Made by a program: the position numbers and the translations under genes
Shown here: positions 883-51,298 of the stretch, piece by piece
Position numbering within the stretch: position 1 is the first letter of the stretch
How the letters are laid out: every line of letters begins with the position of its first letter
The notes under the pieces: generated by a model
Told to the model about the DNA's origin: nothing
Databases searched by the model: none
What the model saw: the letters and a program-made list of their open reading frames with translations, nothing else
NCBI GenBank assembly: GCA_036011265.1
Contig: DASCNB010000011.1
Location: 1 to 51,758 of the forward strand
DNA from: Nitrospinota bacterium
GTDB lineage: Bacteria; Nitrospinota; Nitrospinia; CAJXCL01
Direction of reading: 5' to 3'
DNA: 51,758 bases

Positions 883-1695
883 TTACTTTTTAGCTACAGC
901 CCATATATTATTTGAAAAAAGAAAATTTAAAGGAAAGATTAAAGAAAAAGGGAAAAGATGACATACTACTTGACGGGCGAATTCTAAAATTTTTTCTTTC
1001 GTAGAGTTCTTTTTTACTGGACTGATATATTCATTTCCCAACCATACTTTTGCATAAAAACCAGCCTTTGTTAAACAATCTTTCAAGCTTAATATCGTTT
1101 GTTCATTAATGTGAACTTTTAAGTCTGTTTCATTTCGGATTTCCCTTGTCAGCAGATTTTGTTTAAAAATGCGGTTTAATATTTTATTTACCGGTCGTTC
1201 CCATAAGGGGTAACCAAAATCATTATACCATCGGTTTGGTGAGGTATGGATTATCAGTTCTCCATTTTCTTTCAATGTTCTTTTACATTCTTTCAAGCAT
1301 TGCAAAAGATCGGCAGGTGAAAGATGCTCTGCTACATCCATAAAAAATATTTTGTCAAAAGTACTCTCTTTAAAGGGCAAAGTATCCCCGGAAGCTTGAT
1401 GAACTGAAAAAAAAGACGTTTTATTATCCGGAAGTGATTGTTTCGCTACTTTAGCAATTTCAATCGCGTCAGAAGCATAGTCTATGCCATAGGAATGAAT
1501 ATTTTCCCTAGCACATGCCAGAACAAAATCCCCTCTTCCACACCCTATATCAAGAATTTTCATCGCTGACCTTAATTTTGCCATATTAACGGCATCTTTG
1601 AGCCTAGGAGAGATTAATCCTTTTTTGAAACAATCTATACCTTCCATTGAAAGAAAATATTCTTTTGAATAAAGTTTTGAATCTGGAGTTTTCAT
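883..1695 (-). CDS. class I SAM-dependent methyltransferase
   Basis: 270-aa ORF. SAM motif I ILDIGCGRGDF, then acidic loop GIDYASDA and FFMDVAEHL. 4-nt overlap with the upstream GT4 gene. Confidence 0.8.
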   Translation of the reverse strand: MKTPDSKLYSKEYFLSMEGIDCFKKGLISPRLKDAVNMAKLRSAMKILDIGCGRGDFVLACARENIHSYGIDYASDAIEIAKVAKQSLPDNKTSFFSVHQASGDTLPFKESTFDKIFFMDVAEHLSPADLLQCLKECKRTLKENGELIIHTSPNRWYNDFGYPLWERPVNKILNRIFKQNLLTREIRNETDLKVHINEQTILSLKDCLTKAGFYAKVWLGNEYISPVKKNSTKEKILEFARQVVCHLFPFSLIFPLNFLFSNNIWAVAKK

Positions 1696-2828
1696 AATAG
1701 TGATTTATATATTTCAATATGTTTTTTTACGGCAGAATCCCATGAAAAATCTTTTTTAGCCTTTTCTTGTGCGGTTTTTGTCCTGTTTTGCATTTTTTCT
1801 ATATTTTCTAAGGCAAAAATAATTGCCCTTGTTAAAGACTCAATATCTTCAGAAGGTACTAATCGCCCGGTTTCTCCGTCTTTCATTATTTCCGGTATTG
1901 CTCCTGCTCTTGTGGATATAACTGGTATTCCAGCGGCCATAGCTTCAGCAATGGTTAATCCGAAACTCTCGATTCTGGATGGAAGAATGCATAAATTACA
2001 GTTGGACATAATTTTTTGAATTTCAATTTTTCCTTTCCAACCATAAAAAATAACGTTATTATTAACACCCAGTTCTTTACAAAGCCTTTTGCTTAAATCC
2101 ATATAATTTCCCTCTCCAATTAAATGAAGTTTAAAATCCGGAAACTTTTGAAGCACATTTGCAAAAGATTTCACCAAAATATCGATTCCCTTTTCATGCT
2201 CTACCCTCCCAAAGTACAGCAGGTTTGAAATTTTATCTTTCTTTTGAACAGCTACATTAAACCAGGATGGGTCTACACCCGGAGAAATGGTTTTTATGAC
2301 ATTGCGGTACTTTCCCTGTATTCCGTTTATGACCAATCTCCTCGAAAAGTTGCTGTATGTTAACAACAGATCAGCTTTGATTGCAACTGCTCTCAGGAGA
2401 TAAAAATTCAACCTTTTTAACAATTGGATTGGACATCTTAACGCTTTTATAATTCCGGTCTTTGGAATAAATGGGGAATGAGATGTGAGAACAAATTTAG
2501 AACCTCTTAATTTTACCAGGTACGGAATAAAAAAGGCTTCTTCACCATTTCCATGAATAATATCTAAATGAACTTTTCTGCTTAATTTAAGAACCTGAAA
2601 AGCAACAGAAAAGATATTGAGATTTACAGTCTTAACATTAAAATGCTTCGCAAATATGGCACTGTAATTCAAAGAAGGCAGGCTTTTATTTTGGCTGTTG
2701 CCGGTATAGACAACCCAGACATTGCAGTTGTTTTTCGCCAAGTTTGTTGCAAGATAGTGAACTGCAATTTGTCCTCCTCCTTTAAAATCAGACCATGGAG
2801 AAGAATTAACTGTCAAGCAAATATTCAT
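1692..2828 (-). CDS. GT4-family (GT-B fold) glycosyltransferase
   Basis: 378-aa ORF. C-terminal retaining GT-B signature RIESFGLTIAEAMAAGIPVISTRAGAIPEI (E-x7-E type). Confidence 0.85.
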   Translation of the reverse strand: MNICLTVNSSPWSDFKGGGQIAVHYLATNLAKNNCNVWVVYTGNSQNKSLPSLNYSAIFAKHFNVKTVNLNIFSVAFQVLKLSRKVHLDIIHGNGEEAFFIPYLVKLRGSKFVLTSHSPFIPKTGIIKALRCPIQLLKRLNFYLLRAVAIKADLLLTYSNFSRRLVINGIQGKYRNVIKTISPGVDPSWFNVAVQKKDKISNLLYFGRVEHEKGIDILVKSFANVLQKFPDFKLHLIGEGNYMDLSKRLCKELGVNNNVIFYGWKGKIEIQKIMSNCNLCILPSRIESFGLTIAEAMAAGIPVISTRAGAIPEIMKDGETGRLVPSEDIESLTRAIIFALENIEKMQNRTKTAQEKAKKDFSWDSAVKKHIEIYKSLL

Positions 2829-2905
2829 AGTAAGCGCTCAACCATCAGTTGTCAGCTATCAGATAGGCAAAAGCTTGGTTAACAAGATTGCAGGATGGGC
2901 AAGAT

Positions 2906-2991
2906 TTTTGGTTGCGACTTTCGCCGGGCTGTATCATTCTATGGCTTAATTAAACTTTTGTTTCTATCCTGAGCATCTTGTTTATCCTGTC
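2906..2991. repeat. intergenic repeat element, copy A (core ttttggttgc...gggctgtatcattc plus catcttgtttatcctgtc)
   Basis: Shares the exact 10-mer ttttggttgc (2906-2915) with 4189-4198, followed by a similar about 25-nt tail. Also shares a catctt(c)gt..cctgt block with copy B. Locally G+C-richer than the surroundings. Confidence 0.35.
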
Positions 2992-3018
2992 AAAAATTCT
3001 CCTGACCGAACTATTGCG

Positions 3019-3491
3019 TTATAATAATGGAATAGTATTTAGATTAACTGAATAAAGGCTTCTATCTCTTTTTTTAAATCTATCTGCTGTTGGAAAAAAT
3101 TTATCAACTAATCTATCCAACCGGTCTCCCATCAACTCAAATCCCTAAATATTTCTAAAGAGGCAACAGAATGTTAAAAACTCATCAAGAGAAGCAACAG
3201 GTTCTTCTGAAACTATTGCTGGACGAATATCCTTACGCTCAAATGTCATTCGATACAATAACTACTTATGCCAATGCTCTCCACCTTCGAAAGCCCCGTT
3301 AATTTCCTTAGCAATTATCTTAAATATTCTTTCACAAACATTGTAAAAATCATGCAAAATAGAACCTTTAACACACCTTGTCTCTGATTTATTAATATAA
3401 GGTTTAACTCCTTTTTTAATTTTTCAATATTGGAAAGCTCAATAACAATTAAACCTTTTATTTCTTGTAAAAAACTATTTTCCAGATTCAT
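3019..3491 (-). pseudogene. HEPN-domain (HepT-like) toxin gene, disrupted by a frameshift and in-frame stops
   Basis: My translation: MNLENSFLQEIKGLIVIELSNIEKLKKELNLI... in one frame. It then continues as SILHDFYNVCERIFKIIAKEINGAFEGGEHWHK*LLYRMTFERKDIRPAIVSEEPVASLDEFLTF..FRNI*GFEL in shifted frames with stops. The start overlaps the stop of the MntA-like remnant, as in TA pairs. Confidence 0.5.
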
Positions 3492-3825
3492 AAATTACTC
3501 TACCTTTTTCCAAAACAAGCCTTTTAAATTCAGCGTTTATATCTTCAAAAGGTTTTATGTCAATAACTGTCTTACATTCTCCTCAACAATGCCCAATGGC
3601 CTTAAAGTATTGGCCTCCTAAGCCTTCTACAACAAGATCATCATCCGAACTTATAATTATCTTTCCATTAACCATAGACCCAAAAAGTATTATACATTTG
3701 AATAAGTAGTGATATCTTAGGATATTAACAGCATTATTTAAATCATTCTGAAGATATTTCTTCCTCAGCTTGATCTTTTTAGTCTTATTCAATAATATTC
3801 TTTCTGCAATATATGAGATTTTCAT
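3475..3825 (-). pseudogene. MntA-like minimal nucleotidyltransferase antitoxin gene, frameshifted
   Basis: Track ORF 3583-3825 carries FGSMVNGKIIISSDDDLVVEGL (the GS-x9-12-D-x-D nucleotidyltransferase motif) and stops early. The expected C-terminus VIDIKPFEDINAEFKRLVLEKGRVIYESGK is readable in another frame down to 3475. Confidence 0.5.
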
Positions 3826-3868
3826 TTGTTCTCCCAGATAAGTTTCGTTTCATCATAACAAATAAATA

Positions 3869-4093
3869 TTACAGTATGATCAAGTCAATCAGATCTAATA
3901 GCTCAAAATGCTTATCCCTTGTTAGCAGTATGCCGTCGACTTCCATGCAGCAAGCAGCTATCCATACATCGTTAATGGGTATCTTGTTTCCTTTCTGCAC
4001 TGCAAATTTGTAAAATTGTGCTTTTTTAGCAAAGTTTTTGTAAACCATTAAAAGGAATGGAGCATATATTTTGCTGATGGTACGAATCAACAC
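3869..4093 (-). pseudogene. PIN-domain (VapC-like) toxin, C-terminal fragment only
   Basis: 74-aa ORF with KGNKIPINDVWIAACCMEVDGILLTRDKHFELL, the typical C-terminal half of PIN nucleases. The N-terminal acidic residues and a cognate antitoxin are not found. Confidence 0.45.
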
Positions 4094-4144
4094 AGATTAA
4101 AACATTTTGTTTTCAGTCTAAGCCTGAAAATAAAAAAGAATATA

Positions 4145-4222
4145 TCCGCGTAAATCTGTTTAATCAGCGTCATCTTCGTCCTGTTTTATTTTGGTTGCTG
4201 CCCCTAGCTAGACTGCATAGTC
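4145..4222. repeat. intergenic repeat element, copy B (tccgcgtaaatctgtttaatcagcgtcatcttcgtcctgttttattttggttgctgcccctagctagactgcatagtc)
   Basis: Contains ttttggttgc at 4189-4198 and a tail similar to copy A, in the same orientation. Copies A and B bracket the toxin-antitoxin remnants. Confidence 0.35.
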
Positions 4223-4504
4223 GGAATAGAAATTCGTATATTGATTAATTTTTCCTTTTCTGAAGAAATTCTAAGGCTTAAAGACATCCATACTCACCTT
4301 CTTGTATTTCAATGCTAATATTGTATCGCACAATAGCAAGTTAGACAAAAAAAATTCAGTGAAAAATATTTTATTAACTCTTTGCTCGTAAAATAATACT
4401 TGATTCCTATCAAATACTCTAAAAGCCATTTGCGCTTTCTTTGCCTTCTCTGTCTTGAATTTAATACTGCAGTCCATCCAAAAACAAACTTCTAAAATCA
4501 GTCC

Positions 4505-4521
4505 TTTTTTTTTGGGGGGGG
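4505..4521. repeat. composite homopolymer tract T9G8
   Basis: Sequence tttttttttgggggggg read directly at 4505-4521, in the intergenic region about 300 nt upstream of the plus-strand SDR gene. A G8 run stands out in this AT-rich DNA. Confidence 0.9.
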
Positions 4522-4817
4522 CATATATCTCTCTTCAACAGGCTGTCAATGAAAGTGCCCCTTTATCTGAGAAAAGAAGGGAGGAATTTATCTGATCGCC
4601 AATGGGTCATAGATTTACTAACACTTTCAATTATACGCCTTTTAATTCCTATTCTTGTATTAATATTAAACCTGTGATAACTTTTCTCTTAAACACCGGC
4701 TTAATATATGTTTTTTACTTTCTTTGGAATAGTGCTATTTCAGCAGGGAAACCAAGATGTCTTAACTTCTTTTCACATTTTTAGTAAAAAAAGCAAACAA
4801 TAGAAAAGGAATATTAT

Positions 4818-5540
4818 ATGAAAAATGTTTTTATCACAGGAGGAAGCTCCGGTATTGGATTAGCTCTGGCGAAGGATTATGTGAAAGAGGGTTATCGTGT
4901 AGGGATATGTGGAAGAGACCCCAATAAGTTTAAAAATATTAATGGAATCACTTTTTACGAAGCTAATGTAACAGACAGGGAAAATTTACGGCAGTCCATC
5001 ATCGATTTTGCAGAGAAGGGCCTTGATATTCTTATTGCAAATGCTGGAATTTCTGCTATTGAAAAAACAAGGATTCCTGATTTTGAAAAAGCTAGAAAAA
5101 TTATTGATGTTAATCTCATTGGCTTACTCAACACGTTTGAAATTGGAGTTGAATTATTTAAAAAAAATGGCGGACACCTAGTGGCCATCTCTTCTGTTTC
5201 AGGATTTGTCGGGCTTCCTGGTACCGCTGCTTATTGTTCGTCTAAAGCAGCTGTTTTAAAGCTGTGTGAATCTTTTGCAATTGATTTTAGGCCTATAGGT
5301 ATTCATGTAACAGCCATTGCTCCCGGGTTTGTTGATACTCCTCTTACAAAACTTAATAAACACCCTATGCCTTTTATTATCTCCTCGTCTAAGACGTCCA
5401 AACTTATTAGAAATGCCATTTCAAAAAAAAAGGAACTCTACGTATTCCCATTTGGAATGTATTTGATGATTACAATTTTAGCTTACATGCCCCGCATGCT
5501 TTATCGAATGCTTATGAGAAGTATTAGTTTCTATAAATAG
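4818..5540 (+). CDS. short-chain dehydrogenase/reductase (classical SDR)
   Basis: 240 aa. ITGGSSGIGLALA cofactor motif, NAG, catalytic S...YCSSK. Confidence 0.8.
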   Translation: MKNVFITGGSSGIGLALAKDYVKEGYRVGICGRDPNKFKNINGITFYEANVTDRENLRQSIIDFAEKGLDILIANAGISAIEKTRIPDFEKARKIIDVNLIGLLNTFEIGVELFKKNGGHLVAISSVSGFVGLPGTAAYCSSKAAVLKLCESFAIDFRPIGIHVTAIAPGFVDTPLTKLNKHPMPFIISSSKTSKLIRNAISKKKELYVFPFGMYLMITILAYMPRMLYRMLMRSISFYK

Positions 5541-5562
5541 AGAAATAGCCAGAGGAAATGCT

Positions 5563-7200
5563 GTGTTTAACAAAAAAAATAATTTGGTAATTACAATATC
5601 CTTATTTTGCATAATTCTTTTTAAACGATTGATTTTTTTGAATTTAGGAGTAAATCTTGAGGAAGCCAAAGACCTTGAAGCAATAATTAAAATCACTAAT
5701 GGTGAAGTACTTTACCGGGATTTCTATTATATTTACGGATTTCTGGGTTTATACTTAAATGCAGCAGTATTCAAACTTTTTGGCGTTGCTGACATTCTGA
5801 TTCCGCGTCTAATTGTCTCCCTGTTTTTCGCTTCTTCTGTATTTTTTGCTTACAAGATCGCATTGAGATTTGTATCTCCATTTTGGGCTTTTGTAGCAGT
5901 ACTGCTTGGTTTTTCCGGGCTTGTTACAAGGGAACATACATATGGTCACATTTTTGCGTTTGCCGGTATTATAACGTCTCTATGGGCAGGGCTTTCATAT
6001 ATCAATGAGAGGAACCTCAGGTATCTGATTTTAGCAGGACTGTCGACAGGCATTGCTTTAATAAGTAAACCATTGCCGCAGGGGATTTTAGCAAGTTTTG
6101 CACTAATGAGCTTACTGGTTTACGAATATTTTTTTATAGATAAGAAGTGGAACCCGCTTCCTTATGTGGCTTTTATTTTAAGCCTCCTGATTTTTCCGTC
6201 CTTGGGAGTTTTATATTTTTATTCACAAAACGCGCTTTTATTATTTTTAAAGTCGTTATTTCCCATGTTTAGTGGCGGAGCTTTCCATCCCAGCACTTAT
6301 TTTTATATCCCGTCTATTGTTCCTGATGCTTTTTTTTCTGCAAGAAGTTTAGGAGAACTGAAGGCTATTTTGAACATTTATTTGTATCAAAATTTAAGGT
6401 GGTGGCTGATCTCAATTTTATTTATTATCGGCATTGCATATTCAATTCGTAATTTGTACAGGGACAGACAAAATAGCCATTTTTTATCTGTTTTATTTTT
6501 GAGCAGTTTTTCAATGGTTTTTGAACTTCAGAGAATCCTGATCCCTGGTTTAAACCCTTATGTAAGTCTGTTTCCTACGTTTGTGTTGTTGATTTACTTT
6601 GGAATCAAAATAAATACTTCCCGGCATGCAAAGCAGATGGTCCAAATTATGATCTTTTTATTGCTTTTCCTTTATTTTATATATCCGCCTTTAATTTATT
6701 ATATTAATTATAAAAATAACGGACAACCGCTCCGGTTAAAATATGCAGATAATGTTATCGTAAAGCCTTTTACCTATAATGCATATAGAGAAGCTGTAAG
6801 TTTTATCAAAGAAAAAACGGACGTTGCTGATAAAATAGTTGTCGCGGATTACAATTCTTTCTTTTTCTTATTTAGCGAGAGAGAAAACTTATTTTCAGAG
6901 AATTTTTATTTATTTAGCGTAACAACATTTCATCCACTAGGGAAAAGTTTTTCAATTACTTATAAAAAAAAAATACTCAGAGAAAATGCAATTATTGAAC
7001 GCATTAAGACAGAAAAGCCGGCGCTGGTTTTAATCCCTTCTGATTATCTAACTGCTAATTCCATTGAACAGTCTGTGTTCTTAAAATACATAATCAATAA
7101 TTGGAACAAATGCAAAGAAACAGGCGTCGGGACAAAAAGAACCGCGTTTGATAATAATATAGGTGTTACTATATTTTGTTCATCTGAAAGAAATTTTTAA
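5563..7200 (+). CDS. polytopic GT-C-fold glycosyltransferase-like membrane protein (ArnT/PMT-like) with a C-terminal soluble domain
   Basis: 545 aa with a GTG start. About 11 hydrophobic segments. N-terminal loop GEVLYRDFYYIYGFLG resembles the first periplasmic loop of ArnT/PMT_2 proteins. The last about 170 aa are hydrophilic. Confidence 0.5.
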   Translation: MFNKKNNLVITISLFCIILFKRLIFLNLGVNLEEAKDLEAIIKITNGEVLYRDFYYIYGFLGLYLNAAVFKLFGVADILIPRLIVSLFFASSVFFAYKIALRFVSPFWAFVAVLLGFSGLVTREHTYGHIFAFAGIITSLWAGLSYINERNLRYLILAGLSTGIALISKPLPQGILASFALMSLLVYEYFFIDKKWNPLPYVAFILSLLIFPSLGVLYFYSQNALLLFLKSLFPMFSGGAFHPSTYFYIPSIVPDAFFSARSLGELKAILNIYLYQNLRWWLISILFIIGIAYSIRNLYRDRQNSHFLSVLFLSSFSMVFELQRILIPGLNPYVSLFPTFVLLIYFGIKINTSRHAKQMVQIMIFLLLFLYFIYPPLIYYINYKNNGQPLRLKYADNVIVKPFTYNAYREAVSFIKEKTDVADKIVVADYNSFFFLFSERENLFSENFYLFSVTTFHPLGKSFSITYKKKILRENAIIERIKTEKPALVLIPSDYLTANSIEQSVFLKYIINNWNKCKETGVGTKRTAFDNNIGVTIFCSSERNF

Positions 7201-7275
7201 CGGAGAGTTGCCTGGAGACGTAAAACTTATAGGGTTAAATAAACAACGCAGGGAGACCTTGTTTAAATTGATATT

Positions 7276-8379
7276 CTATGTTTTAGTGCATCTTGCGCAT
7301 CCTGGAAATAATCCCTTTTTCAAGCTTCTTCTAAATTTAATAAATTTTTCTGAATTCCATATATCAAGAAAAGGTTTTTCATTTATGTTTCCTACAGAAT
7401 ACTTAAAAGCCTCGCATGGAACAACATCTCCATTGGGATAAATAAAAGCTCCCCTGTGCACAAAGTAACATTTTCTTGATGTTTTAAATTTACTCGAATA
7501 CCAATCTTTCATTTCTTCTAGACTTAAATCGGGAGTCATGCTAAACCTTCCCTTGTATTCATTAGTAAATTTCTTGATTTTATCAAAATAGATACTTGCT
7601 TTTTCTTTAGGGTCATAAAAATAATTAACTTCGTCTATATGCTCTCCCGGAAATGTTTTATCCATAACCTGTTTATTTATTTTAACATCTTCTTCAGCAA
7701 CATACGTAGGGTGTCCAAACCTTATTAAATCAACTTTTAATTCCTCTCCAAGCTCTACTATTTTCCCTAATTCATCAAGGTTTTCTTCTAAAATTGTAGT
7801 ATGAAGCATGATTTTTGTTTTTCTATTTTTGTACGTGGAGAATTCTTTTATGGCGTTAAGGGTTTTCTCGTAAGCTCCTTTAATGCCGAGGATATCATCA
7901 TGTTTATGCCCAATTCCTTCCATCGCAAAAACGACATAACTCATTTCCACATCTACTATTTCTTTAATCAGTTCAGGCGTAAATAGGGTCCCGTTAGTAA
8001 AAATGCCACACTTCATTCCATAAGCCTTAATCCTTTTGGCAATTTCAATAAAATCTTTTCTGATTGTCGGCTCTCCGCCAAAGAAAGTTATACTCGGCTT
8101 ATAAGGAGAGACTTCCTTTAGCAGCTTATCTATTCCTTCAAAAGTTAAATCATTTTTATCTTTATTCAGCAGGGCTCCCACATTGCACATACTACATTTT
8201 GCATTGCATTTCAATGTTAGAAAAAGAGCAATATTGATCGGAGCATGATTTTTCCCATCACCACGAATATAATAATCGTAAGAAAAAAGAAAAATCTCTT
8301 TTAATGCTCTTAAGTAGGAATAAGCATTAAATTTGGTTATGGCTACATGATGCCTTTCGATCGAAGTTAATATTGACAT
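7276..8379 (-). CDS. radical SAM enzyme with C-terminal SPASM/twitch-like Cys cluster
   Basis: 367 aa. LTLKCNAKCSMCN (CxxxCxxC), FFGGEPT. C-terminal cysteines in GDVVPCEAF and FPGCARCTK. Confidence 0.8.
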   Translation of the reverse strand: MSILTSIERHHVAITKFNAYSYLRALKEIFLFSYDYYIRGDGKNHAPINIALFLTLKCNAKCSMCNVGALLNKDKNDLTFEGIDKLLKEVSPYKPSITFFGGEPTIRKDFIEIAKRIKAYGMKCGIFTNGTLFTPELIKEIVDVEMSYVVFAMEGIGHKHDDILGIKGAYEKTLNAIKEFSTYKNRKTKIMLHTTILEENLDELGKIVELGEELKVDLIRFGHPTYVAEEDVKINKQVMDKTFPGEHIDEVNYFYDPKEKASIYFDKIKKFTNEYKGRFSMTPDLSLEEMKDWYSSKFKTSRKCYFVHRGAFIYPNGDVVPCEAFKYSVGNINEKPFLDIWNSEKFIKFRRSLKKGLFPGCARCTKT

Positions 8380-8388
8380 TTTATTATT

Positions 8389-9816: not shown

Positions 9817-10032
9817 TATTATTTTGTCTTCATTTATGTCAATTCAAGCTTACTCAAAGAACTATATAAGAATAGTAAGAGGTTAAACTAATTAACAAGG
9901 GAGGATCAAAGAACTCATAAAAAAATGATAATTAATAAATGGTAAAACTTCAAGAATTTTATTTTAGCAATAACCGATTTCAAAGACGCTGGAACATCAC
10001 ATTTGCAATTGAGAATTACTTAATAAATGATA

Positions 10033-42353: not shown

Positions 42354-43120
42354 TTGAACATTTCTTTTGCTTTTTCAAGGTCTTCCATAAAATCTACTTC
42401 AATCCATGGAAAGTTATTTGTAGAACTGCAATATATTTTATTTCCTTCTTCTGCCATTTTGGTAAACGCGAAAGAATCATAATTAGTTAAACCATCTTCA
42501 AATAAAACTTTTTCTACATATTTAAATAGATATTCAGGCTGCTTCACATATGCAATACCTGTCCACTCACCCCCAGCCTTGTCGAGAGAAATTTTTTTAT
42601 CTGATTTAATTAGATAGTTTTCTTCAGTAACTATAACCTTCATCGCTTCTTTATCTGTACTGCCAAAATCTACAACTAACTCTATATTATTATTGTTATC
42701 TTTAAACTGTTGAAGTGTTGAGGATATTATATTTTCATGATAGATAATGTCGCTATGTAAGTACACGAAAGGGCTATTACCAGCAAAAGATTTTGCTAAC
42801 CAAAAAGAGGCGAGGTTGTTTGAAATTTTATAAAACGGGTTGGTTATATAAAATATGTCTTCCTCAAACGACTCAATGATCATATCTTTTTTATAACCAA
42901 CAACGATAGCTATGTCATTAATACCATTTTTTCTCAAAATATCAATGGATCTTTTTAATATTTCTTTACCAGAGACTTTCAGCAAAGCTTTCGGTTTTTC
43001 TGAGGTAATTGGATAAAGTCTGCTGGATATCCCGGCAGCAACGATGATAGCTTTGTCAATCAAATTTTTTTCCGAGAAAAAAGGTGATAAGTATTGGTCG
43101 GTTGAGATTAAGCTCGGCAA
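42350..43120 (-). CDS. stand-alone nucleotidyltransferase (LicC/PntC-like cytidylyltransferase candidate)
   Basis: 256 aa with a TTG start in the track. AIIVAAGISSRLYPITSEKPKALLKV signature. 4-nt overlap with the Fe-ADH gene. Confidence 0.7.
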   Translation of the reverse strand: MPSLISTDQYLSPFFSEKNLIDKAIIVAAGISSRLYPITSEKPKALLKVSGKEILKRSIDILRKNGINDIAIVVGYKKDMIIESFEEDIFYITNPFYKISNNLASFWLAKSFAGNSPFVYLHSDIIYHENIISSTLQQFKDNNNNIELVVDFGSTDKEAMKVIVTEENYLIKSDKKISLDKAGGEWTGIAYVKQPEYLFKYVEKVLFEDGLTNYDSFAFTKMAEEGNKIYCSSTNNFPWIEVDFMEDLEKAKEMFK

Positions 43121-43208
43121 GATAGCATTTAAATATTTGCGTTTTTACGTTATACTACTTTTAAACTTTTCCCCGGCCTTTTATATTTGGTTATGAATAT
43201 TTAGATGA

Positions 43209-44738
43209 TCACGTCTGTTTCTGAAGAAACTTAGCGTCAATGTTATCACCATAGTGATTTTTAAACTTTTCGAAATCTCGATGTTTAAGAAGTTCATTCA
43301 GATAGAGAGTTTTTTCATCTACCCAATGCTCAAATTCATGAGGGTTATTAAATCCAGCAACTTTTATTAGCGAATTCCGATATAAAATATCCCTCTTTCC
43401 CCGCGCATCATCCCACCAAAGGTTTTCTTTCAAAACCTGATGGTAAATTGGCGTTCCAGGAAGTGGAGATAGAATGGCAAGGGAATAACTATCAGCACCA
43501 ACTTGTGCCGCAAAGTCAATCGTTTTTTCCATTTCTTCTCGTGTCTCCCCCGGATATCCAACAATCCAGAAAGTATGGACAGATAATCCTGCTTTTTGGG
43601 CATTTTCCACTGATGGTTGAATTTCCTCTAATTTGAGTTTTTTGTGAATAATATCATCCAGTACTCTCTGTACTCCACTTTCGCAACCGAATGTAATCTG
43701 GTAACAACCAGCATCTGCCATCCTTTTGTATAATTCATATTGTCTGTCTCCTTTTTGGTGATAATTTACCTTTACACCGTTTGGTGTGCACCAGGTAATC
43801 CCAAGATGTTCAATGAGGTTACAAAGTTCAAAAAGATTTTTTCTGTTGGCAGTGAGCGTATCATCTTCGAATTGCACTTCATCAATATCATATTTTTTAA
43901 TTCCTTCTTTAATCTCATCATAGATGTTTTGTGGATCTCTCCATCTTACCTTTTGCCCCCACATTAAAGGAGTTGTGCAAAAACTGCATATTTCAGGGCA
44001 CCCCCTTGATGCCATAACATTAAGCACCCGTCTTGATTTGGATTTACTTGAATGAAACAATCCAATCTTGAAATACCCTTCCAAATTCATGAGATCTCTT
44101 GAAGGAAAAGGAAGTTTGTTGATATCTTCTAAAGGGGAGGGTGCTGGATTAATATAGATTAGATTATTTTTAAAGTAAATTAATCCAGGAATATCTTTGG
44201 GATCTTGCTCATTAATAAGTCTTTTTACAAGCTCAGCAAATTGATACTCAACCTCTCCTCTCATAGCAAAATCAATGTTCCTATCCTGCAGATCAACCAT
44301 TTCTCCTGGAACTCTCACATCAGGATGTTTACAGGCAAATTGATAATCTCTCACTGCATTGCTGATATGATTTCCTCCAAGAATTACTTTAACTTTGGGA
44401 TTTACAGTTTTTGCAATCTTTGCAATGGTATAAGCATGATCCATCATGTTAGAGAAGAGAACTGAAACACCAATAATGTCTGGATTTAAGCTGGCAATAT
44501 AAGATGCTATATTTTCATTAGATTCACCAATAAGTACTATTTTATCATCAAGATTTTTCTCATTGCGATATCCCTCTAAAGCACAATCTCTTATGTAAAC
44601 TGCATGACCAGATTTTCTGAGTACCGATCCTAAATATCCAACACCTAACCCTGGTTGAATACGGTTAATACCGCTTTTCATCCCTTTTATGTTGGGTATC
44701 ATTAAAAGAACTCGTGCTTGCTTTGCCATGTTTGGCAC
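43209..44738 (-). CDS. B12-binding-domain radical SAM enzyme (class B) #4, Fom3-like by context
   Basis: 509 aa. VLLMIPN...LGVGYLGSVLRKSGH...DIIGVSVLFS B12-like domain, then ASRGCPEICSFCTT and FGCESG. Located between the Ppd and NTase/ADH genes. Confidence 0.75.
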   Translation of the reverse strand: MPNMAKQARVLLMIPNIKGMKSGINRIQPGLGVGYLGSVLRKSGHAVYIRDCALEGYRNEKNLDDKIVLIGESNENIASYIASLNPDIIGVSVLFSNMMDHAYTIAKIAKTVNPKVKVILGGNHISNAVRDYQFACKHPDVRVPGEMVDLQDRNIDFAMRGEVEYQFAELVKRLINEQDPKDIPGLIYFKNNLIYINPAPSPLEDINKLPFPSRDLMNLEGYFKIGLFHSSKSKSRRVLNVMASRGCPEICSFCTTPLMWGQKVRWRDPQNIYDEIKEGIKKYDIDEVQFEDDTLTANRKNLFELCNLIEHLGITWCTPNGVKVNYHQKGDRQYELYKRMADAGCYQITFGCESGVQRVLDDIIHKKLKLEEIQPSVENAQKAGLSVHTFWIVGYPGETREEMEKTIDFAAQVGADSYSLAILSPLPGTPIYHQVLKENLWWDDARGKRDILYRNSLIKVAGFNNPHEFEHWVDEKTLYLNELLKHRDFEKFKNHYGDNIDAKFLQKQT

Positions 44739-45016
44739 CTATTTATGCATTATTTCCACAAAATTTTAAAAAAATATTGCTATAAAAATTGAAATTGAAC
44801 ACGTTGCTTCTTCTTTGGGAATAGAAGGCTTCATTCCGCAAAAATCATTTTTTATCACATGCCCTTAAAGAAACGCGATGATACTCTTATACAGTGAAAA
44901 AATCGACCTGTGCCTTACCTTTTCTTACAAACTATTTCAAATTGCCTTCTCTGACAATGTAATACGTTGTTTGACGTACTTTCCCTTTAATATTCTCATC
45001 GAATAAATATAAAATT

Positions 45017-46132
45017 TTAATTTCGAAGTTTGTCTATAAATATCCTCTTATTTTCTTCAGGTGTTATTGTTGGCCTTATAAGGTTTTCCCTTGATCCTTT
45101 TTTTATCTTAATAACTATTATTGTTGGGCATTTTTTAATTTTTTTCAGAGTTGTTAAAATATCTGCTACCGTTAAACAAGTTATAGATTCACTATACCCA
45201 CAACCTAACGCTATGGAAGCTATATCTATTTTATCAGAGACAGTGGGCTGTCCTCCTGTTGATTCATACGCGTTATTGTCAAAAACTATATGTATCAAGT
45301 TATTAGGAGCATAAAAACCTATTGTAGCTAAAGTTCCCATGTGCATAATAACACTTCCATCACCATCAAATACATAAATCTTCTTTTCGGGTTTTTGTTT
45401 AGCGATTTCTAATGCTATTGAAGAACAGTGTCCCATGGAACCAACCGTGTAGAAATCATTGCTATGTCCGGTACCACATTCCTCTCTGTATTCAAAAAGC
45501 TCTCTGGAAGTCTTTCCAGTAGTAGCAACAATAATCTCGTTACCGTTAAAAGAATCAATAATAGCCCTTATTGCCTGATCTTTCGTTAATGGTAAGTCGC
45601 TTTTTACCCTTATTCCTGAGTCATACTCTTCCAACAATTCATTCCTAACTATTAATGCAACAGGCATACTTTCACACACTGCCTTGTTCTTGACCTTTTC
45701 TATCTGGTACTTTATCTTATCTTCTTCGAGAATCTCATAGTAAATTTCCAGCTTTTTAAGTAAAGGGAGCATAATTCTACCCATTTTCTTATGTTGTGGC
45801 TCATCCTTTTTCCCTGGTTCTCCTCTCCAACCTGTCATAAGTATCATTGGAATACTAAAAACTTCAGGATCTGCAAGAGAGGTTAATGGATTAATGCAAT
45901 TGCCAATTCCGGAATTTTGCAAGTAAACAACACCAATTTTATTAGTAGCAAGATAATATCCTGCCGCATGAGCTACTGCTGCACCTTCATTTGAGGCTAT
46001 CCTATTAGTCAGCATATCGCTGTTTGCGGCAAGATAACTCATCCATTGCTTAAAAGTGCTATCCGGAACACCGCTAAAATAGACTAAATCATTTTTTTTA
46101 AAAATTTCAAACAGGTTTTCACATGCTATCAT
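45017..46132 (-). CDS. ppd: phosphonopyruvate decarboxylase (ThDP-dependent)
   Basis: 371 aa, a typical Ppd length. N-terminal FSGVPDSTFKQW. ThDP motif FDGDGSVIMHMGTLATIG...FDNNAYESTGGQ. Immediately downstream of PEP mutase. Confidence 0.8.
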   Translation of the reverse strand: MIACENLFEIFKKNDLVYFSGVPDSTFKQWMSYLAANSDMLTNRIASNEGAAVAHAAGYYLATNKIGVVYLQNSGIGNCINPLTSLADPEVFSIPMILMTGWRGEPGKKDEPQHKKMGRIMLPLLKKLEIYYEILEEDKIKYQIEKVKNKAVCESMPVALIVRNELLEEYDSGIRVKSDLPLTKDQAIRAIIDSFNGNEIIVATTGKTSRELFEYREECGTGHSNDFYTVGSMGHCSSIALEIAKQKPEKKIYVFDGDGSVIMHMGTLATIGFYAPNNLIHIVFDNNAYESTGGQPTVSDKIDIASIALGCGYSESITCLTVADILTTLKKIKKCPTIIVIKIKKGSRENLIRPTITPEENKRIFIDKLRN

Positions 46133-46329: not shown

Positions 46330-47964
46330 CTACATATCCATAAAAAAAGAATGGGCTAATTTGTAATTTTCAAAATTCCTAATTTCAATCCAGCCACTAT
46401 TAACCTCAATACCGTATACACTTACTCCTTTATCAATTATTTTTTGTATAATCTGTAGAAAATGTTTTCTCTGTTCTGGTAACTCTATTTTGCTTTTCTG
46501 CTGACGATAAGCATCCTTGAAAATCGCTATCCCTTTTTTTGAAAAATAGGATATTCCTATATATTCAAATTTTGCTTTTTGTGGATCCATATCTTTTCCA
46601 ATTTGAAGAATTTCATTCTCTTTTTCCTGGAACATCTTTCTTTCACCTTTTATTGGATCTTTTTTGGCAACAATATAATCAATAGATGAATCTTTTCTTG
46701 GCATTGAACTATTCATCAGCAAAACTATATCAGAAGAGGTATGGAGTAATTTTTTTATAATCGATTTTTCAAAAAGAACATCAGAAAATATTATCAAGGT
46801 ACGACTGTTTAAACTATCCCTTACCAGCATAATTGAATCGACAAGTGAAGTGTTTTCAAAATCGGCATTATTAAGATAAGTTACACCTTCCAGTTTAAAC
46901 TTCTCTGAATTGTAACCTGTAATTACTGTAATATCGTATAAACGTAGCCTACTAAGAGTTTCAACATTCCTCTGAAGAATAGATTTTCCGTTAATATCAA
47001 GCATTGCAATTGGATAATCTTTAACTATATCCTCCAAAGATTCTTCATAGCTCGGATCTCCCGCAGCAGGGATTATAACTTTTATATCGCTTAATTCTTT
47101 TTTCAAATATAATTTATCCGCTTCCTTAAGTCGTGACATCCCTTGCAATTCAAATACAGTATTCATTGATACGATCGACTTATCAATGGTTTTCAAATTT
47201 TTTCCACTTTTTATAACTTTAAGAACTTTGTTAACAGCCTTGATAGCAGCCCTTATGCAATGATTTGCATAAATTATCATTTTTATACCCATCTCGGCCA
47301 TTTCCTCGACATGTGGCAGAGGATAGGTTGTGGGTACAACAATAAGGGGCGCCCTTTTATTCCATCTTCTACAAAATTCCTTTATTTCTGATATATCTTT
47401 TGCCTTGGAATGTATTAAGATAGCATCTGCGCTCGCATCTACATACGCATTTGCCCTTTTTATAGCTTCATCTATACCCCAACCGGCAATGAGGGCCTCT
47501 ACCCTTGCAAACACCATAAAATTTTCATCTTCCTGAGCGCTCTTTGCTGCCATAATTTTTCCAACAAATTCTGCAATGGAAGCCAGTTCCTGTTTGCCCG
47601 GAACAAAGCTATTCATTTTTGGAAATAATTTATCTTCAATACATACAGCGGCTATATTTGCTGCTTCATATTTTTTTACCATATGGATTACATTATTTGT
47701 ATTTCCATACCCTGTATCACAATCAGCTACAACAGGGATTGTTATTGACTCGTTCATTTCACAAGAACGTTCCAAGTATTGACTCATTGTTAAAATACTG
47801 GAATCAGGAACTGCAAAAGAGGTCGATATCTCCAAACCAGACGCCCATACCCCATCAAACCCGTTTCTTTCAACAAGTTTTGCGCCCAAGCCATCATGAG
47901 CACCGACAATTTTTATTATTTTGTCTTTCTTAAAGAGTTCTCTCAGTTTTTCTGATTTTTTCAT
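46330..47964 (-). CDS. pepM: phosphoenolpyruvate mutase fused to a C-terminal nucleotidyltransferase domain
   Basis: 544 aa. The first about 290 aa are GAHDGLGAKLVERNGFDGVWASGLEIS...CIEDKLFPKMNSF, carrying the PepM-diagnostic EDK-x5-NS motif. The last about 250 aa (about 46330-47082) are an NTP-transferase fold: VIIPAAGDPS...LDINGKSILQ. Confidence 0.85.
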   Translation of the reverse strand: MKKSEKLRELFKKDKIIKIVGAHDGLGAKLVERNGFDGVWASGLEISTSFAVPDSSILTMSQYLERSCEMNESITIPVVADCDTGYGNTNNVIHMVKKYEAANIAAVCIEDKLFPKMNSFVPGKQELASIAEFVGKIMAAKSAQEDENFMVFARVEALIAGWGIDEAIKRANAYVDASADAILIHSKAKDISEIKEFCRRWNKRAPLIVVPTTYPLPHVEEMAEMGIKMIIYANHCIRAAIKAVNKVLKVIKSGKNLKTIDKSIVSMNTVFELQGMSRLKEADKLYLKKELSDIKVIIPAAGDPSYEESLEDIVKDYPIAMLDINGKSILQRNVETLSRLRLYDITVITGYNSEKFKLEGVTYLNNADFENTSLVDSIMLVRDSLNSRTLIIFSDVLFEKSIIKKLLHTSSDIVLLMNSSMPRKDSSIDYIVAKKDPIKGERKMFQEKENEILQIGKDMDPQKAKFEYIGISYFSKKGIAIFKDAYRQQKSKIELPEQRKHFLQIIQKIIDKGVSVYGIEVNSGWIEIRNFENYKLAHSFFMDM

Positions 47965-48963: not shown

Positions 48964-49294
48964 ATTTCCATTTCCGATTTACCAATTCCTTTTTTAGACT
49001 AAACTTTTTCGTAAAACTGTTAACAGCTATGTCAAGTGACGCGTTTCTGATTGAAGCTCTTTCCCCCCAAAACACAGCATAACATTTTACAGGCAGACCA
49101 TTGATTAACAAAGGGAATATTGAATTAAACAATTCAAATTACAAGTAAACTCAAGTTGCAAAAAATCTAGACAGTTCAGGACAATTGGAATCTACAGGTT
49201 TAGAATCTGAAGAATAAACGCCATGAAGGGCGCATATATTAAGGATACACAAATTCATAAATCTTAAACTATAGGGCTATTAACTTTATATTTT

Positions 49295-51298
49295 TTATAA
49301 TGACTCTTCATTGCTATATTTTACTTCTCTTCTTAAAAAATTTATTCCTCCTACCCTAAATAAGAGGTTTGAAATCCCTTGATCCGAATTTCCAAAGAGC
49401 TTGAGTCTGGAATTTATTTCGCTTGCGGATTCTTTGTATATGTAAAAAGTACAATTCAAGCTTCCTTTAAATTCATAGAGTTTTTTAGAGGATGTGTCGT
49501 CAAACCACTCGGGCATATTGTAGTCAAATGATTTTTCAATAGGCTCGTCGTAAGAGTTTTTGAGATTAATATATCTTGATATCGTGAATTCTTTCAAATT
49601 CTCCAGTTCCGTGTCATCATGATCGGGTGCTAAATTCTTTATAAAAAAATCAACCATCAAACCTGCATAATCAGTGATTAACAAAGCATAGTAGGTCTGT
49701 ACGAGATTACCACCGATTTCACCTTTTAATACTTTTGAAAAATTTTCTTCATTTGAGCAATAATTTTTTAATTCTTCGACAGTCTCAAATAGCTCTCCTT
49801 CTGCATCGTTTCTATACCTATTAAAAACATCAACAAGGTTATTGGGGGCGGATTCAGAATTTTCGACCAAGGCCTTAATAAACTCATAGAAATTCTGCCC
49901 TTCTTTAATGTATTTTAGAAGTGGTTCAAAAAGCACACTGTGCACAGTCTTCATAATCAACTGCAGAAAACGGGATTTTTTGTAATCTTGTAAACTAAAC
50001 TTATTTGTAGAAACACATATTTCTTCGTATTCAAAACAGTTTTCGCCAAAAAACCTTCCGATATCACGCGGTAAAATCCTGAACCTTGTTTGCATATTAT
50101 ATCTATCTCTAAATTCCTTTGTCTTGATCTCGGTACCATTTAACATCATTAAATTGTGCACAAATACATTGTCAACCCCTGCAGAAATCATAAACCTATA
50201 GGATTCAAAATGACTTTCAAGCGTTTCCATAGGCAAAGGCAGGATTGTTTGGCCTTCAAGTTTATCATCCGGGTTATTAAACGAGTCTTTCAGCTGAATA
50301 TAGGTATTGGCATCGATATTTTTTCTTTTAATGGTTTTTAATGTATCAGGATTTGTGGATTGCAGTGCCGCACGGATAGTTATTGTGCCTGGCTTTAATA
50401 TATTAACAGCTTTGATAACTTTATAAGCATCCTTTCCAGTAGCAACAGTAATACTTTGCGGCCAGTTTTTCTTATCTTGAAGCGTCCGAATAAACTTACA
50501 AATCTCAATATCCCTGGGAAACATTGCAAAATTGCTATCTGTAATATGAAGTAGGGATTTTTGGGCTTTGTTTGAAATATAATCTAATTCCGCCTTTACT
50601 CGTTCAATAGAAAAAAATCTTACCTTGCTATATGTTTTATTGCCCTCATAACAATAAACACAAGAAAACGGACATCCTCTTGTAGTCTGCATCATAGGAA
50701 GAAGCTTTGTATTAAAAAACTTATCCATTGTACCATCTAGATATGGAGAAGGAATCTCTTCTAGCTTTTCATGCCTATAAAAGGGTGAATCAGATGAGAC
50801 AATATCACCATTGCCAGAGAGACAAATAACTCCGTTATGCACATTTTTTTTTATTTTTTTAATTTCGCCATTTTCCTTAATATAATTGCTTACTATGTTT
50901 TCAAATGGTATCTCGCCATCACCACAAACATAATAATCTATATATGGCCTGTCTCTTAAGAATTTTCCCTGACTGCTTAAATCGTAAGAAATATTTGAAC
51001 CACCCATAACTGTCAAAAGATTACTATTCTGTTTTTTAAACTTCCGCAATATCAATGATGATAATTCCAATGTCCACGGATAATTAGTTGTACCCAATAT
51101 GTCTGGAAAGTTCCTATTAATTTTTTCCTCTAATTCATCGACAAATCTAAATATTTCTACACTTACTTTTTCAGCTAAAACTTTTTTTAAGTATGATGAT
51201 AAAAAACTGATCGAAAGAGGAAAAACATAGTTTGATAACACCCGGTTTTCGTATACAGGATCTATCAAGTAAATGGTTACTCTCTTATTGTCAGACAT
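49295..51298 (-). CDS. B12-binding-domain-like radical SAM enzyme #5 with a long C-terminal extension
   Basis: 667 aa. N-terminal Rossmann-like region (VTIYLIDPV...DILGTTNYPW...VMGGSN), TTRGCPFSCVYCYEG, and about 250 aa of unrecognised C-terminal sequence. Confidence 0.7.
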   Translation of the reverse strand: MSDNKRVTIYLIDPVYENRVLSNYVFPLSISFLSSYLKKVLAEKVSVEIFRFVDELEEKINRNFPDILGTTNYPWTLELSSLILRKFKKQNSNLLTVMGGSNISYDLSSQGKFLRDRPYIDYYVCGDGEIPFENIVSNYIKENGEIKKIKKNVHNGVICLSGNGDIVSSDSPFYRHEKLEEIPSPYLDGTMDKFFNTKLLPMMQTTRGCPFSCVYCYEGNKTYSKVRFFSIERVKAELDYISNKAQKSLLHITDSNFAMFPRDIEICKFIRTLQDKKNWPQSITVATGKDAYKVIKAVNILKPGTITIRAALQSTNPDTLKTIKRKNIDANTYIQLKDSFNNPDDKLEGQTILPLPMETLESHFESYRFMISAGVDNVFVHNLMMLNGTEIKTKEFRDRYNMQTRFRILPRDIGRFFGENCFEYEEICVSTNKFSLQDYKKSRFLQLIMKTVHSVLFEPLLKYIKEGQNFYEFIKALVENSESAPNNLVDVFNRYRNDAEGELFETVEELKNYCSNEENFSKVLKGEIGGNLVQTYYALLITDYAGLMVDFFIKNLAPDHDDTELENLKEFTISRYINLKNSYDEPIEKSFDYNMPEWFDDTSSKKLYEFKGSLNCTFYIYKESASEINSRLKLFGNSDQGISNLLFRVGGINFLRREVKYSNEESL

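Follow-up and report, generated by a model that had tools for sequence, protein, structure and literature searches.

The window analysed here, the whole 51,758-nucleotide stretch of contig DASCNB010000011.1 (assembly GCA_036011265.1), is best read as the leftmost 51 kb of a larger chromosomal island (72 kb or more) that builds and heavily tailors a cell-surface glycan with a pseudaminic acid (Pse)-type nonulosonic acid; its host would be an uncultured marine bacterium, probably a member of the Nitrospinota. We assign this reading a probability of about 0.65. Longest-open reading frame (ORF) calls combined with Pfam and NCBIfam scans gave 42 genes in 883-51298 (Table 1), 38 of which lie on the minus strand. 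Twelve start/stop overlaps were counted, five of the classical 4-nt ATGA type, while the extent of the longer ones varies with the start codon chosen. The sequence-only reading of the same DNA had counted about 45 genes with a minus-strand bias and at least nine overlaps, which agrees well, and each chemistry that it named has a sequence basis: phosphonate, sulfate, two carrier-protein acylations, methylation and radical S-adenosylmethionine (SAM) enzymes. Its proposal of a surface-glycan tailoring island is borne out by the domain content of the window and its flank, where PseI, a Wzx flippase and cytidine monophosphate (CMP)-sugar synthetases are encoded.

Exact-protein look-ups found this DNA again, with a nucleotide identity of 99.9-100%, on more than 20 contigs of independent assemblies (NCBI, ENA, JGI/Tara and Logan), and we therefore regard it as a real contiguous locus. 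Samples with the identical locus include Tara and other JGI marine metagenomes, and homologues of the island proteins carry the names Nitrospinae or Nitrospinales. Compared with species representatives in a genome collection, the LepA protein encoded beside the island had its best match, 70% identity, in a Nitrospinota MAG. The identical proteins MBQ09481.1 and HJP17175.1 are labelled differently, as a 'Gammaproteobacteria bacterium' metagenome-assembled genome (MAG; GCA_002726125.1) versus a 'Nitrospinota bacterium' third-party annotation MAG; the former label is probably a binning or taxonomy error. The database names of the island proteins that we checked were 'hypothetical', except for two JGI copies of the 751-aa protein named 'FkbH-like protein', and a literature search found no published description of the locus.

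The flanks were read on public contigs 99.9-100% identical to the window. On the left (L007), pgi is followed by lepA, the signal peptidase gene (lepB) and rsmG/gidB; because these are housekeeping genes, the left border of the island was placed at ~720-883. On the right, glycan genes run on for at least 20 kb and the border lies beyond the DNA read; an exact 44-mer from the end of contig L094 was absent from the metagenome collection, and the cluster representative retrieved for the ATP sulfurylase was a truncated copy on a 3.9-kb contig. The continuation begins with a CMP-sugar synthetase whose 3' end is still in the window, followed by a NodU-type carbamoyltransferase, a dehydratase, a PseG-like protein, PseI, a Wzx-type flippase, a sixth B12-binding radical-SAM enzyme and a second TagF-like protein. 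Farther out are a TylF methyltransferase, a cyclase, a PseF-like synthetase, an epimerase, a 2-hydroxyacid dehydrogenase and a HAD hydrolase, and finally an ATP sulfurylase with a pyruvate-kinase-like domain and another weakly sulfotransferase-like protein. PseI (L001 3846-4898, ~6 kb outside the window) scored 496.6 on TIGR03586 (cut-off 340.25) and 301.5 on the NeuB model, below its cut-off of 399.65. The flippase (L001 2237-3655) matched Polysacc_synt and Polysacc_synt_3. Family scans of the window showed no Wzx, ABC exporter, initiating transferase or nonulosonate synthase, as the sequence-only reading had noted; it had placed export and nonulosonate genes outside, and PseI, the PseG-like protein, CMP-sugar synthetases and Wzx do lie within 8 kb of the right end.

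Several observations weigh against the favoured reading. Members of the Pse pathway other than PseI belong to the right superfamilies but stay below the equivalog cut-offs (PseG-like, 98.5 versus 153.55; PseF-like, 60.2 and 34.2 versus 205.7; PseC-like, Table 1). The dehydratases scored best with LegB/RmlB-type models (137-160 bits) and reached only 26-70 on the PseB equivalog (cut-off 407.75). None of the 72 kb read encodes a recognised initiating phosphoglycosyltransferase, Wzy, Wzz or O-antigen ligase, and parts of the pathway may lie at another locus. A LicD-type phosphonyl transferase was absent from the window genes in the family scans and from the recorded Pfam families of the flank genes. 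Finally, only co-orientation and tight spacing hint that all the cassettes act on one polymer.

Two related lineages, L097 (51-78% amino acid identity) and L102, were compared with the window; a second metagenome scan yielded three loci. In L097 the gene order is an intact insertion sequence (IS) IS21 transposase, PseG, dehydratase, PseI, a GNAT/CMP-synthetase fusion, pyruvate kinase, ATP sulfurylase, sulfotransferase, DUF4910, TagF-like transferase and adenosine 5'-phosphosulfate (APS) kinase, with no phosphonate genes in the 15 kb in view. Its sulfotransferase is ~56-57% identical to the 325-aa protein of the window, and its organism is named 'Nitrospinae bacterium' in one source. L102 has WbqC, CMP-synthetase, phosphoenolpyruvate (PEP) mutase/nucleotidyltransferase, phosphonopyruvate decarboxylase (Ppd), iron-dependent alcohol dehydrogenase (Fe-ADH), a SPASM radical-SAM enzyme, nucleotidyltransferase, APS kinase, two sulfotransferases, PseI, methyltransferase and TagF-like transferase. 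A core of Pse genes, genes for 3'-phosphoadenosine 5'-phosphosulfate (PAPS), a sulfotransferase and a TagF-like transferase thus recurs in all three lineages, in a different order in each; DUF4910 accompanies it in two of the three, as does the phosphonate cassette. In the window this cassette lies between the sulfotransferase and APS kinase genes, and an IS remnant directly follows the kinase.

Cassette mosaicism, in which the island would have been assembled and reshuffled by cassette exchange among relatives, is supported by this comparison, as gene order varies and the phosphonate cassette is not always present, and also by the remnants of an IS and of a wecB gene. A mosaic of cassettes had also been proposed by the sequence-only reading, which placed decayed mobile or toxin-antitoxin DNA at three module borders. 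Two of these stand, at 2829-4817 (toxin-antitoxin fragments) and 40190-40698 (rve), but the third (28761-29199) holds the remains of a second wecB, which immediately precede the intact gene and look like a scar of cassette replacement and not like mobile DNA. At the first border, the PIN fragment (3869-4093, E 1.7e-4) and the MNT-type nucleotidyltransferase/Polbeta fragment (3583-3825, E 1.7e-3) are partial and below the Pfam gathering score. The IS fragment (40490-40669) is unrelated to the intact IS21 transposase of L097, and the junction around it (36699-45277) had an identical arrangement in 10 of 10 spanning contigs among the matches listed. These decayed IS and toxin-antitoxin fragments were the only mobility-related features seen: a tRNA scan of the window found none, and a repeat search returned short chance matches only, with no IS ends, att-like repeats or long repeats.

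The GC content along the window is 31-39%, and GC at third codon positions (GC3) of the island genes (~0.29-0.32) equals that of the housekeeping flank. The block 22820-27594 (GT-C-type glycosyltransferase, methyltransferase, GT2 family glycosyltransferase and epimerase genes), which adjoins the wecB remnant, is the sole compositionally distinct part, with a GC3 of 0.39-0.43 in four of its five genes and 0.32 in the 246-aa gene. Apart from this block, base composition does not point to a recent foreign source and lends no support to the cassette picture. All contigs found in this population carry an invariant island (99.9-100% identity), including the IS remnant.

Several independent glycan loci lying side by side, and not one system, would be the strongest competing explanation, and we consider it unlikely, if worth serious weighing. 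Conceivable separate units are an Arn-like periplasmic decoration of lipopolysaccharide (LPS)/lipid A (aminotransferase, dehydratase, membrane-anchored GT2 and GT-C; 4818-13111), an O-antigen or capsule unit, and a Pse-based protein or LPS glycosylation with phosphonate and sulfate. Such a division would fit the two plus-strand units with membrane GT-C-type proteins that break the minus-strand run, the gene and IS remnants in the gaps, the deviating GC3 of 22820-27594 (~0.30 elsewhere), and the compact unit that the Pse/PAPS/sulfotransferase/TagF-like core forms by itself in L097. However, a single flippase was seen in the 72 kb, and neither a further exporter nor any initiating transferase or polymerase. 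Moreover, 40 kb separate the PseC-like gene from PseI, and the distance between the APS kinase and ATP sulfurylase genes is ~29 kb; functions are therefore spread across the whole region, whose arrangement at the IS-remnant junction is also kept in the spanning contigs. Promoter and terminator scans of the whole window gave counts at the level of shuffled sequence and are thus uninformative on operons.

Within the single-island reading, the 678-aa TagF/TagB-like protein is a presumed CMP-nonulosonate (Pse) transferase. The TagB-like proteins BFO_1060 and Tanf_01245 were genetically shown to add Pse or legionaminic acid (Leg) derivatives to the Tannerella O-glycan (PMC5420450). The assignment is made because in L097 as well as in L102 the TagF-like orthologue stays beside Pse genes, even though L097 has no phosphonate genes in view. 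By chemical analogy to TagF, one of the two TagF-like proteins of the island may instead transfer a phosphonyl group from a CMP-phosphonate, and they are the sole chemically plausible candidates for a phosphonyl transferase. The only two 11-nt homopolymers in the window, both A11 on the coding strand, are at 39078-39088 in the TagF-like gene and at 10770-10780 in the PseC-like gene. In independent assemblies the tract is one base shorter (39078-39088 in L109 and L111, 10770-10780 in L010), and the shorter form is a frameshift; these differences could be due to phase variation of glycan genes by strand slippage, or to errors in the assembly of homopolymers.

The phosphonate cassette includes a PEP mutase (PepM or Ppm) that keeps the EDKxxxxxNS motif as EDKLFPKMNS at residue 110. 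Its score is practically at the cut-off (TIGR02320, 319.2 versus 319.55), and it matches the solved PEP mutase 5unc with E 1.2e-96. The C-terminal residues 294-528 match LicC and nucleotidyltransferase models, with LicC 1jyk aligning to residues 294-446. The Fe-ADH scored 385.4 on TIGR03405, below the cut-off of 423.7, but the next family was more than 200 bits lower (173). Judged by sequence, the Ppm-Ppd-Fe-ADH set is the 2-hydroxyethylphosphonate (HEP) branch and a predicted complete early cassette. Family scans of the window and the flanks read gave no candidate for a FomD hydrolase or HppE epoxidase. Five independent contigs (L110-L114) terminate inside 41749-42761, within the Fe-ADH and stand-alone nucleotidyltransferase genes, which hints at co-existing strain variants that break assemblies.

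The HEP branch (Ppm-Ppd-PhpC) has been described (PMC8942020), and ~60% of Ppm enzymes carry a fused nucleotidyltransferase, which makes CMP-phosphonates used to tailor the cell surface (PMC6697681). In marine bacteria, phosphonate cassettes sit in genomic or glycan islands (PMC8931226).

For sulfation, the island encodes an APS kinase whose relatives in the PDB are all APS kinases. Judged from the sequence, its P-loop, LDGx and lid motifs are conserved. The ATP sulfurylase is a flank gene ~19 kb right of the window (L093 18684-20864; Pfam ATP-sulfurylase; NF003166, 322 versus a cut-off of 387). This 726-aa protein is fused to an N-terminal pyruvate-kinase-like domain and PUA_2, and fusions of this kind are common, with 2555 proteins at E<=1e-60 from groups that include Nitrospinales, Omnitrophota and Brocadiaceae; L097 instead encodes the pyruvate-kinase-like and ATP sulfurylase parts in neighbouring genes.

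Taken alone, the 325-aa protein falls below the Pfam threshold (Sulfotransfer_3, E 0.1), and its sulfotransferase fold was recognised through its family. Many homologues bear PF00685 or PF13469, and when a profile of 34 family members was compared with the PDB, most matches were sulfotransferases, but they were weak (3rnl was best at E 0.0019) and a few entries of other kinds came up near E 1. An AlphaFold2 model built from the family alignment reached a predicted local distance difference test (pLDDT) score of 94.7, and its best 44 Foldseek matches were all PAPS-dependent sulfotransferases. The protein has a GLPRTGKS motif resembling the 5'-phosphosulfate-binding loop and a RHPVDLVYS motif resembling the 3'-phosphate-binding motif, in a family alignment in which R159 and P161 are invariant. 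We rejected the idea that it and the sulfotransferase-like protein beside the ATP sulfurylase are paralogues, as they have no detectable pairwise similarity.

The aminopeptidase-like DUF4910 protein is encoded next to the sulfotransferase and TagF-like genes in L097, which suggests an unrecognised role in nonulosonate or sulfate tailoring. In one assembly (GCA_002896195.2; L107 7173-8462) a substitution splits this gene into 90 + 336 aa, either a pseudogene variant or an assembly error.

Cj1415 is a homologue of APS kinase that phosphorylates CDP-phosphoramidate at the 3' position, and by analogy the APS-kinase homologue and the sulfotransferase-fold protein might serve the phosphonate pathway and not sulfation. 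The kinase would then 3'-phosphorylate a CMP-phosphonate and so create a PAPS-like donor, from which the sulfotransferase-fold enzyme would move the phosphonyl group to the pseudaminic acid glycan. Gene positions agree with such a role, as the kinase gene closes the phosphonate operon, sharing 25 nt with the Fe-ADH gene, and in L102 again follows phosphonate genes, with two sulfotransferase-like genes after it. In Campylobacter, ppm-ppd cores are flanked by radical-SAM and adenylylsulfate kinase genes (PMC8942020), and Cj1415-Cj1418 make CDP-phosphoramidate 3'-phosphate, the likely phosphoramidate donor in O-methyl phosphoramidate (MeOPN) synthesis (PMC11800397). The idea would also account for the missing LicD-type phosphonyl transferase, and the kinase exceeds the apsK cut-off by just 2 bits. 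We nevertheless judge it improbable. An ATP sulfurylase is encoded in the island, and the orthologous sulfotransferase of L097 directly follows the ATP sulfurylase in a stretch without phosphonate genes. In addition, every top PDB match of the kinase is a genuine APS kinase, and the motifs listed above are conserved. If the idea is true, C-P groups would be placed on cell surfaces by a new route, and the sulfotransferase fold would have an activity new to it.

Two carrier proteins mark the acylation modules: ACP1 with a DSL motif is encoded beside an FkbH-domain protein, and ACP2 with a DSI motif lies near an acyl-AMP ligase. ACP2 was found by translating the gap, as ORF lists with a 90-aa minimum miss it. 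If the AAC(3)-like gene is given its longest ORF, with a TTG start at 31584, it shares 56 nt with the ACP2 gene; its true start is probably further downstream. The window encodes seven radical-SAM enzymes, five of them B12-binding, and all seven keep the CxxxCxxC motif. A secondary-metabolite cluster for a phosphonate or aminoglycoside-like product is highly improbable and was rejected: FkbH, carrier proteins, acyl-AMP ligase, the AAC(3)-like enzyme, many B12 radical-SAM enzymes and a Fom1/Fom2/FomC/Fom3-like set are typical of natural-product clusters, but the island has seven surface-glycan-type glycosyltransferases, GT-C enzymes, Wzx, PseI and CMP-sugar synthetases, it lacks polyketide synthases, non-ribosomal peptide synthetases, resistance and efflux genes, FomD and HppE, and the fusion of Ppm to a LicC-type nucleotidyltransferase is a signature of cell-surface phosphonyl tailoring (PMC6697681).

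Among the membrane proteins, the 413-aa protein was considered as a Wzy and rejected as such: GT87 is hit by 18 of 40 members of its family, and GPI mannosyltransferase 1 by the family profile (E 4.7e-12). This points to a GT-C enzyme, whose expected donor is a polyprenyl-phosphate sugar at the outer face of the membrane. The GT2 protein with C-terminal membrane helices (12146-13111) would, from its architecture, make a polyprenyl-phosphate sugar donor. For the 545-aa protein we infer a GT-C-like architecture from its hydrophobic segments; it gave no Pfam, NCBIfam or PDB sequence match and no profile match to GT-C family A2, and its single-sequence AlphaFold2 model (pLDDT 43) was discarded. 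Four SAM methyltransferases are encoded in the window (Table 1).

Table 1. Genes and remnants of the window, with the match or feature on which each assignment is based (bit scores are given versus the model cut-off)
Feature	Position	Strand	Basis
Partial pgi (SIS/bact-PGI_C), housekeeping	1-720	-	Left border of island
SAM methyltransferase, 270 aa	883-1695	-	Methyltransf_11, E 8.8e-19
GT4 glycosyltransferase	1692-2828	-	Glycos_transf_1, E 1.5e-41
Gap with decayed toxin-antitoxin fragments	2829-4817		PIN C-terminal and MNT-type nucleotidyltransferase fragments
Short-chain dehydrogenase	4818-5540	+	adh_short, E 5.8e-40
545-aa polytopic membrane protein, C-terminal soluble domain	5563-7200	+	~10 hydrophobic segments
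Radical SAM/SPASM enzyme	7276-8379	-	CNAKCSMC
B12-binding radical SAM, HpnJ/BchE-like nearest	8389-9816	-	HpnJ 230 bits, below cut-off
DegT/PseC-like sugar aminotransferase	10033-11154	-	E 1.3e-115; PseC 282 vs 423.5
NAD-dependent sugar 4,6-dehydratase/epimerase	11148-12149	-	Pfam/NCBIfam
GT2 with C-terminal membrane helices (ArnC/GtrB-like architecture)	12146-13111	-	Pfam and hydrophobicity
B12-binding radical SAM	13312-14829	-	Pfam/NCBIfam and CxxxCxxC
PIG-L family N-deacetylase	14858-15640	-	E 3.1e-26
Carrier protein ACP1, DSL motif	15637-15867	-	PP-binding, E 7.7e-8, 32.9 bits vs 20.8
TPR and FkbH-domain protein (glyceryl-ACP-type loader)	15864-18119	-	TIGR01686, 315 vs 146.65
FabG-like short-chain dehydrogenase/reductase	18137-18889	-	adh_short_C2, E 8.2e-60
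MaoC-type dehydratase	18898-19320	-	Pfam
Hexapeptide-repeat acyltransferase	19481-20032	-	Pfam/NCBIfam
Radical SAM/SPASM enzyme	20010-21086	-	Pfam and CxxxCxxC
GT2 glycosyltransferase	21097-22059	-	Pfam
GT-C membrane glycosyltransferase (GT87/PIG-M-like), 413 aa	22820-24061	+	Family profile
246-aa protein with terminal membrane helices	24051-24791	+	Hydrophobicity; Pfam/NCBIfam scanned
SAM methyltransferase	24949-25746	-	Pfam
GT2 glycosyltransferase	25734-26471	-	Pfam
NAD-dependent sugar epimerase/dehydratase	26638-27594	-	Pfam/NCBIfam
Non-hydrolysing UDP-GlcNAc 2-epimerase (WecB)	27600-28760	-	363.3 vs 210.15
Remnant of second wecB (N-terminal 54 aa)	28772-28930	-	44% identity over 54 aa to WecB, E 1.3e-10
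SAM methyltransferase	29200-29889	-	Pfam
255-aa protein, faint glyoxalase/VOC hint	29906-30673	-	Pfam/NCBIfam scans
AAC(3)-type N-acyltransferase	30757-31584	-	Antibiotic_NAT, E 7.6e-22
Carrier protein ACP2, DSI motif	31529-31795	-	PP-binding, 21.0 vs 20.8 (just above), E 4e-4
B12-binding radical SAM	31874-33475	-	Pfam/NCBIfam and CxxxCxxC
Acyl-AMP ligase	33581-35065	-	AMP-binding, E 5.4e-38
DmpG-type 4-hydroxy-2-oxoacid aldolase	35049-36122	-	NF006049, 303.7 vs 229
Cyclase/arylformamidase-family metal hydrolase	36147-36806	-	Pfam/NCBIfam
DUF4910/DUF2172/HTH_47 protein (aminopeptidase-like)	36816-38105	-	73% identity to L097 11004-12299
TagF/TagB-like GT-B transferase, 678 aa	38153-40189	-	Glyphos_transf; BFO_1060 family, E 1.3e-7, below cut-off
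Decayed IS	40190-40698	-	rve integrase-core fragment 40490-40669, 33.8 bits vs gathering score 32.6
APS kinase	40699-41277	-	TIGR00455, 140.8 vs 138.7; overlaps Fe-ADH gene by 25 nt
Phosphonate-type Fe-ADH (phosphonoacetaldehyde to HEP)	41253-42353	-	TIGR03405
Stand-alone nucleotidyltransferase	42350-43120	-	27% identical to PepM-fused domain
B12-binding radical SAM inside phosphonate cassette	43209-44738	-	CxxxCxxC; best family Sden_1168 P-methyltransferase, 258 vs 575
Ppd	45017-46132	-	TIGR03297, 444.8 vs 312.5
PEP mutase fused to LicC/PntC-type nucleotidyltransferase	46330-47964	-	TIGR02320, 319.2 vs 319.55; PDB 5unc
Sulfotransferase-fold protein, 325 aa	47986-48963	-	Homologue domains, family profile, AlphaFold2 model and Foldseek
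B12-binding radical SAM, KedN5-like C-methyltransferase family nearest	49295-51298	-	156 vs 700
CMP-sugar synthetase, 3' end in window	51631-51758	-	L001 8895-9668, CTP_transf_3; first gene of right continuation

From the functions of these families we propose the following working of the island. WecB, the dehydratases, the PseC-like and PseG-like proteins, PseI and the CMP-synthetases would make amino and deoxy nucleotide sugars, one product being CMP-Pse. The two carrier-protein modules would supply unusual N-acyl groups. The first would consist of FkbH-ACP1 with the FabG-like reductase, MaoC, the PIG-L deacetylase and the hexapeptide acyltransferase, and the second of the acyl-AMP ligase and ACP2 with the AAC(3)-like acyltransferase, aldolase and cyclase; a sugar would be de-N-acetylated and then re-acylated, following the logic of LpxC/LpxD. 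PEP mutase, Ppd and Fe-ADH would produce HEP, either the PepM-fused nucleotidyltransferase or the stand-alone one would convert it into an activated CMP conjugate, and the B12 radical-SAM enzyme of the cassette would probably methylate the HEP-type product. The ATP sulfurylase of the flank and the APS kinase would provide PAPS for the sulfotransferase-fold proteins, while SAM methyltransferases, the carbamoyltransferase and the remaining radical-SAM enzymes would add further groups. The GT2, GT4 and TagF-like transferases would build the unit on a lipid carrier for Wzx to flip, and the membrane-anchored GT2 and GT-C enzymes would add side sugars from polyprenyl-phosphate donors at the outer face.

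The closest parallels are Pse/Leg loci such as the protein O-glycosylation locus of Tannerella forsythia, which has Pse5Am7Gra, a Wzx and the TagB-like transferase Tanf_01245/BFO_1060 (PMC5420450, PMC5378307). The island shares with them a PseI-type synthase, PseG-like hydrolase, CMP-synthetase, Wzx flippase and methyltransferases, a TagB/TagF-like transferase beside the pathway genes and scope for unusual N-acyl groups (glyceroyl, hydroxybutyryl). However, at 72 kb or more it is much larger, its pathway members except PseI score below equivalog cut-offs, and it adds phosphonate, PAPS/sulfotransferase and carbamoyltransferase genes, two carrier-protein modules and eight radical-SAM enzymes. 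With phosphonyl-tailoring clusters (PMC6697681, PMC8931226, PMC8942020) it has in common the EDKxxxxxNS Ppm fused to a LicC-type nucleotidyltransferase, Ppd, a probable PhpC-type Fe-ADH, a second nucleotidyltransferase nearby, the location in a glycan island, an adjoining IS remnant, and radical-SAM and APS kinase neighbours. Known phosphonoglycan cassettes include those of Prochlorococcus SB and SAR11 islands (PMC8931226) and the HEP-type gene cluster family (GCF) 385 of Campylobacter with radical SAM and adenylylsulfate kinase (PMC8942020). Unlike the phosphonyl-tailoring clusters, the island would use the HEP branch and not the common 2-aminoethylphosphonate (AEP) branch, lacks a LicD-type transferase, has a B12 radical-SAM gene inside the cassette, and has this cassette directly beside sulfotransferase and Pse genes.

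Early enzymes of the fosfomycin pathway are Fom2, FomC and Fom3, a B12 radical-SAM enzyme that C-methylates CMP-HEP. The pathway's Fom1, in Streptomyces, is a CyTase-Ppm fusion (PMC6697681). As in early fosfomycin synthesis, Ppm, nucleotidyltransferase, Ppd, Fe-ADH and a B12 radical-SAM enzyme are encoded together in the island. The fused nucleotidyltransferase is C-terminal (PF12804/PF00483), in contrast to the N-terminal PF01467 domain of Fom1; FomD and HppE are missing, the context is a glycan locus and not an antibiotic cluster, and the radical-SAM enzyme scores best, below cut-off, with the Sden_1168 P-methyltransferase family. By analogy to Fom3, this enzyme may make CMP-2-hydroxypropylphosphonate as a surface decoration. 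Hypervariable glycan ('O-antigen-like') genomic islands occur in marine bacterioplankton. The island resembles them in its block of glycosyltransferase and sugar-modifying genes beside housekeeping genes, in content and order that vary between lineages, and in its IS remnants. It differs in being invariant across the contigs found in its population and in having the composition of its host. The statement that no described system combines all these chemistries thus needs qualifying: the combination is unusual, but sub-combinations have been described (PMC8931226, PMC6697681, PMC8942020). Each module is of a known kind and only their combination is unusual, which makes the island an extreme member of the glycan-island class and not a new class.

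To our knowledge, producers of HEP polysaccharide are poorly known. Because its HEP-type cassette sits in a pseudaminic acid glycan locus, here of a near-clonal marine population, the island points to a concrete candidate producer and supplies a gene set for expression. It also gathers eight radical-SAM enzymes, an FkbH/ACP route and a sulfation-linked DUF4910 protein in one place, and the FkbH/ACP route could explain N-glyceroyl or hydroxyacyl nonulosonates. Finally, the occurrence of phosphonate genes, APS kinase and sulfotransferase-like genes together in two marine lineages points to an unstudied functional connection, with a parallel in the radical-SAM and APS kinase neighbours of the ppm-ppd core in Campylobacter (PMC8942020).

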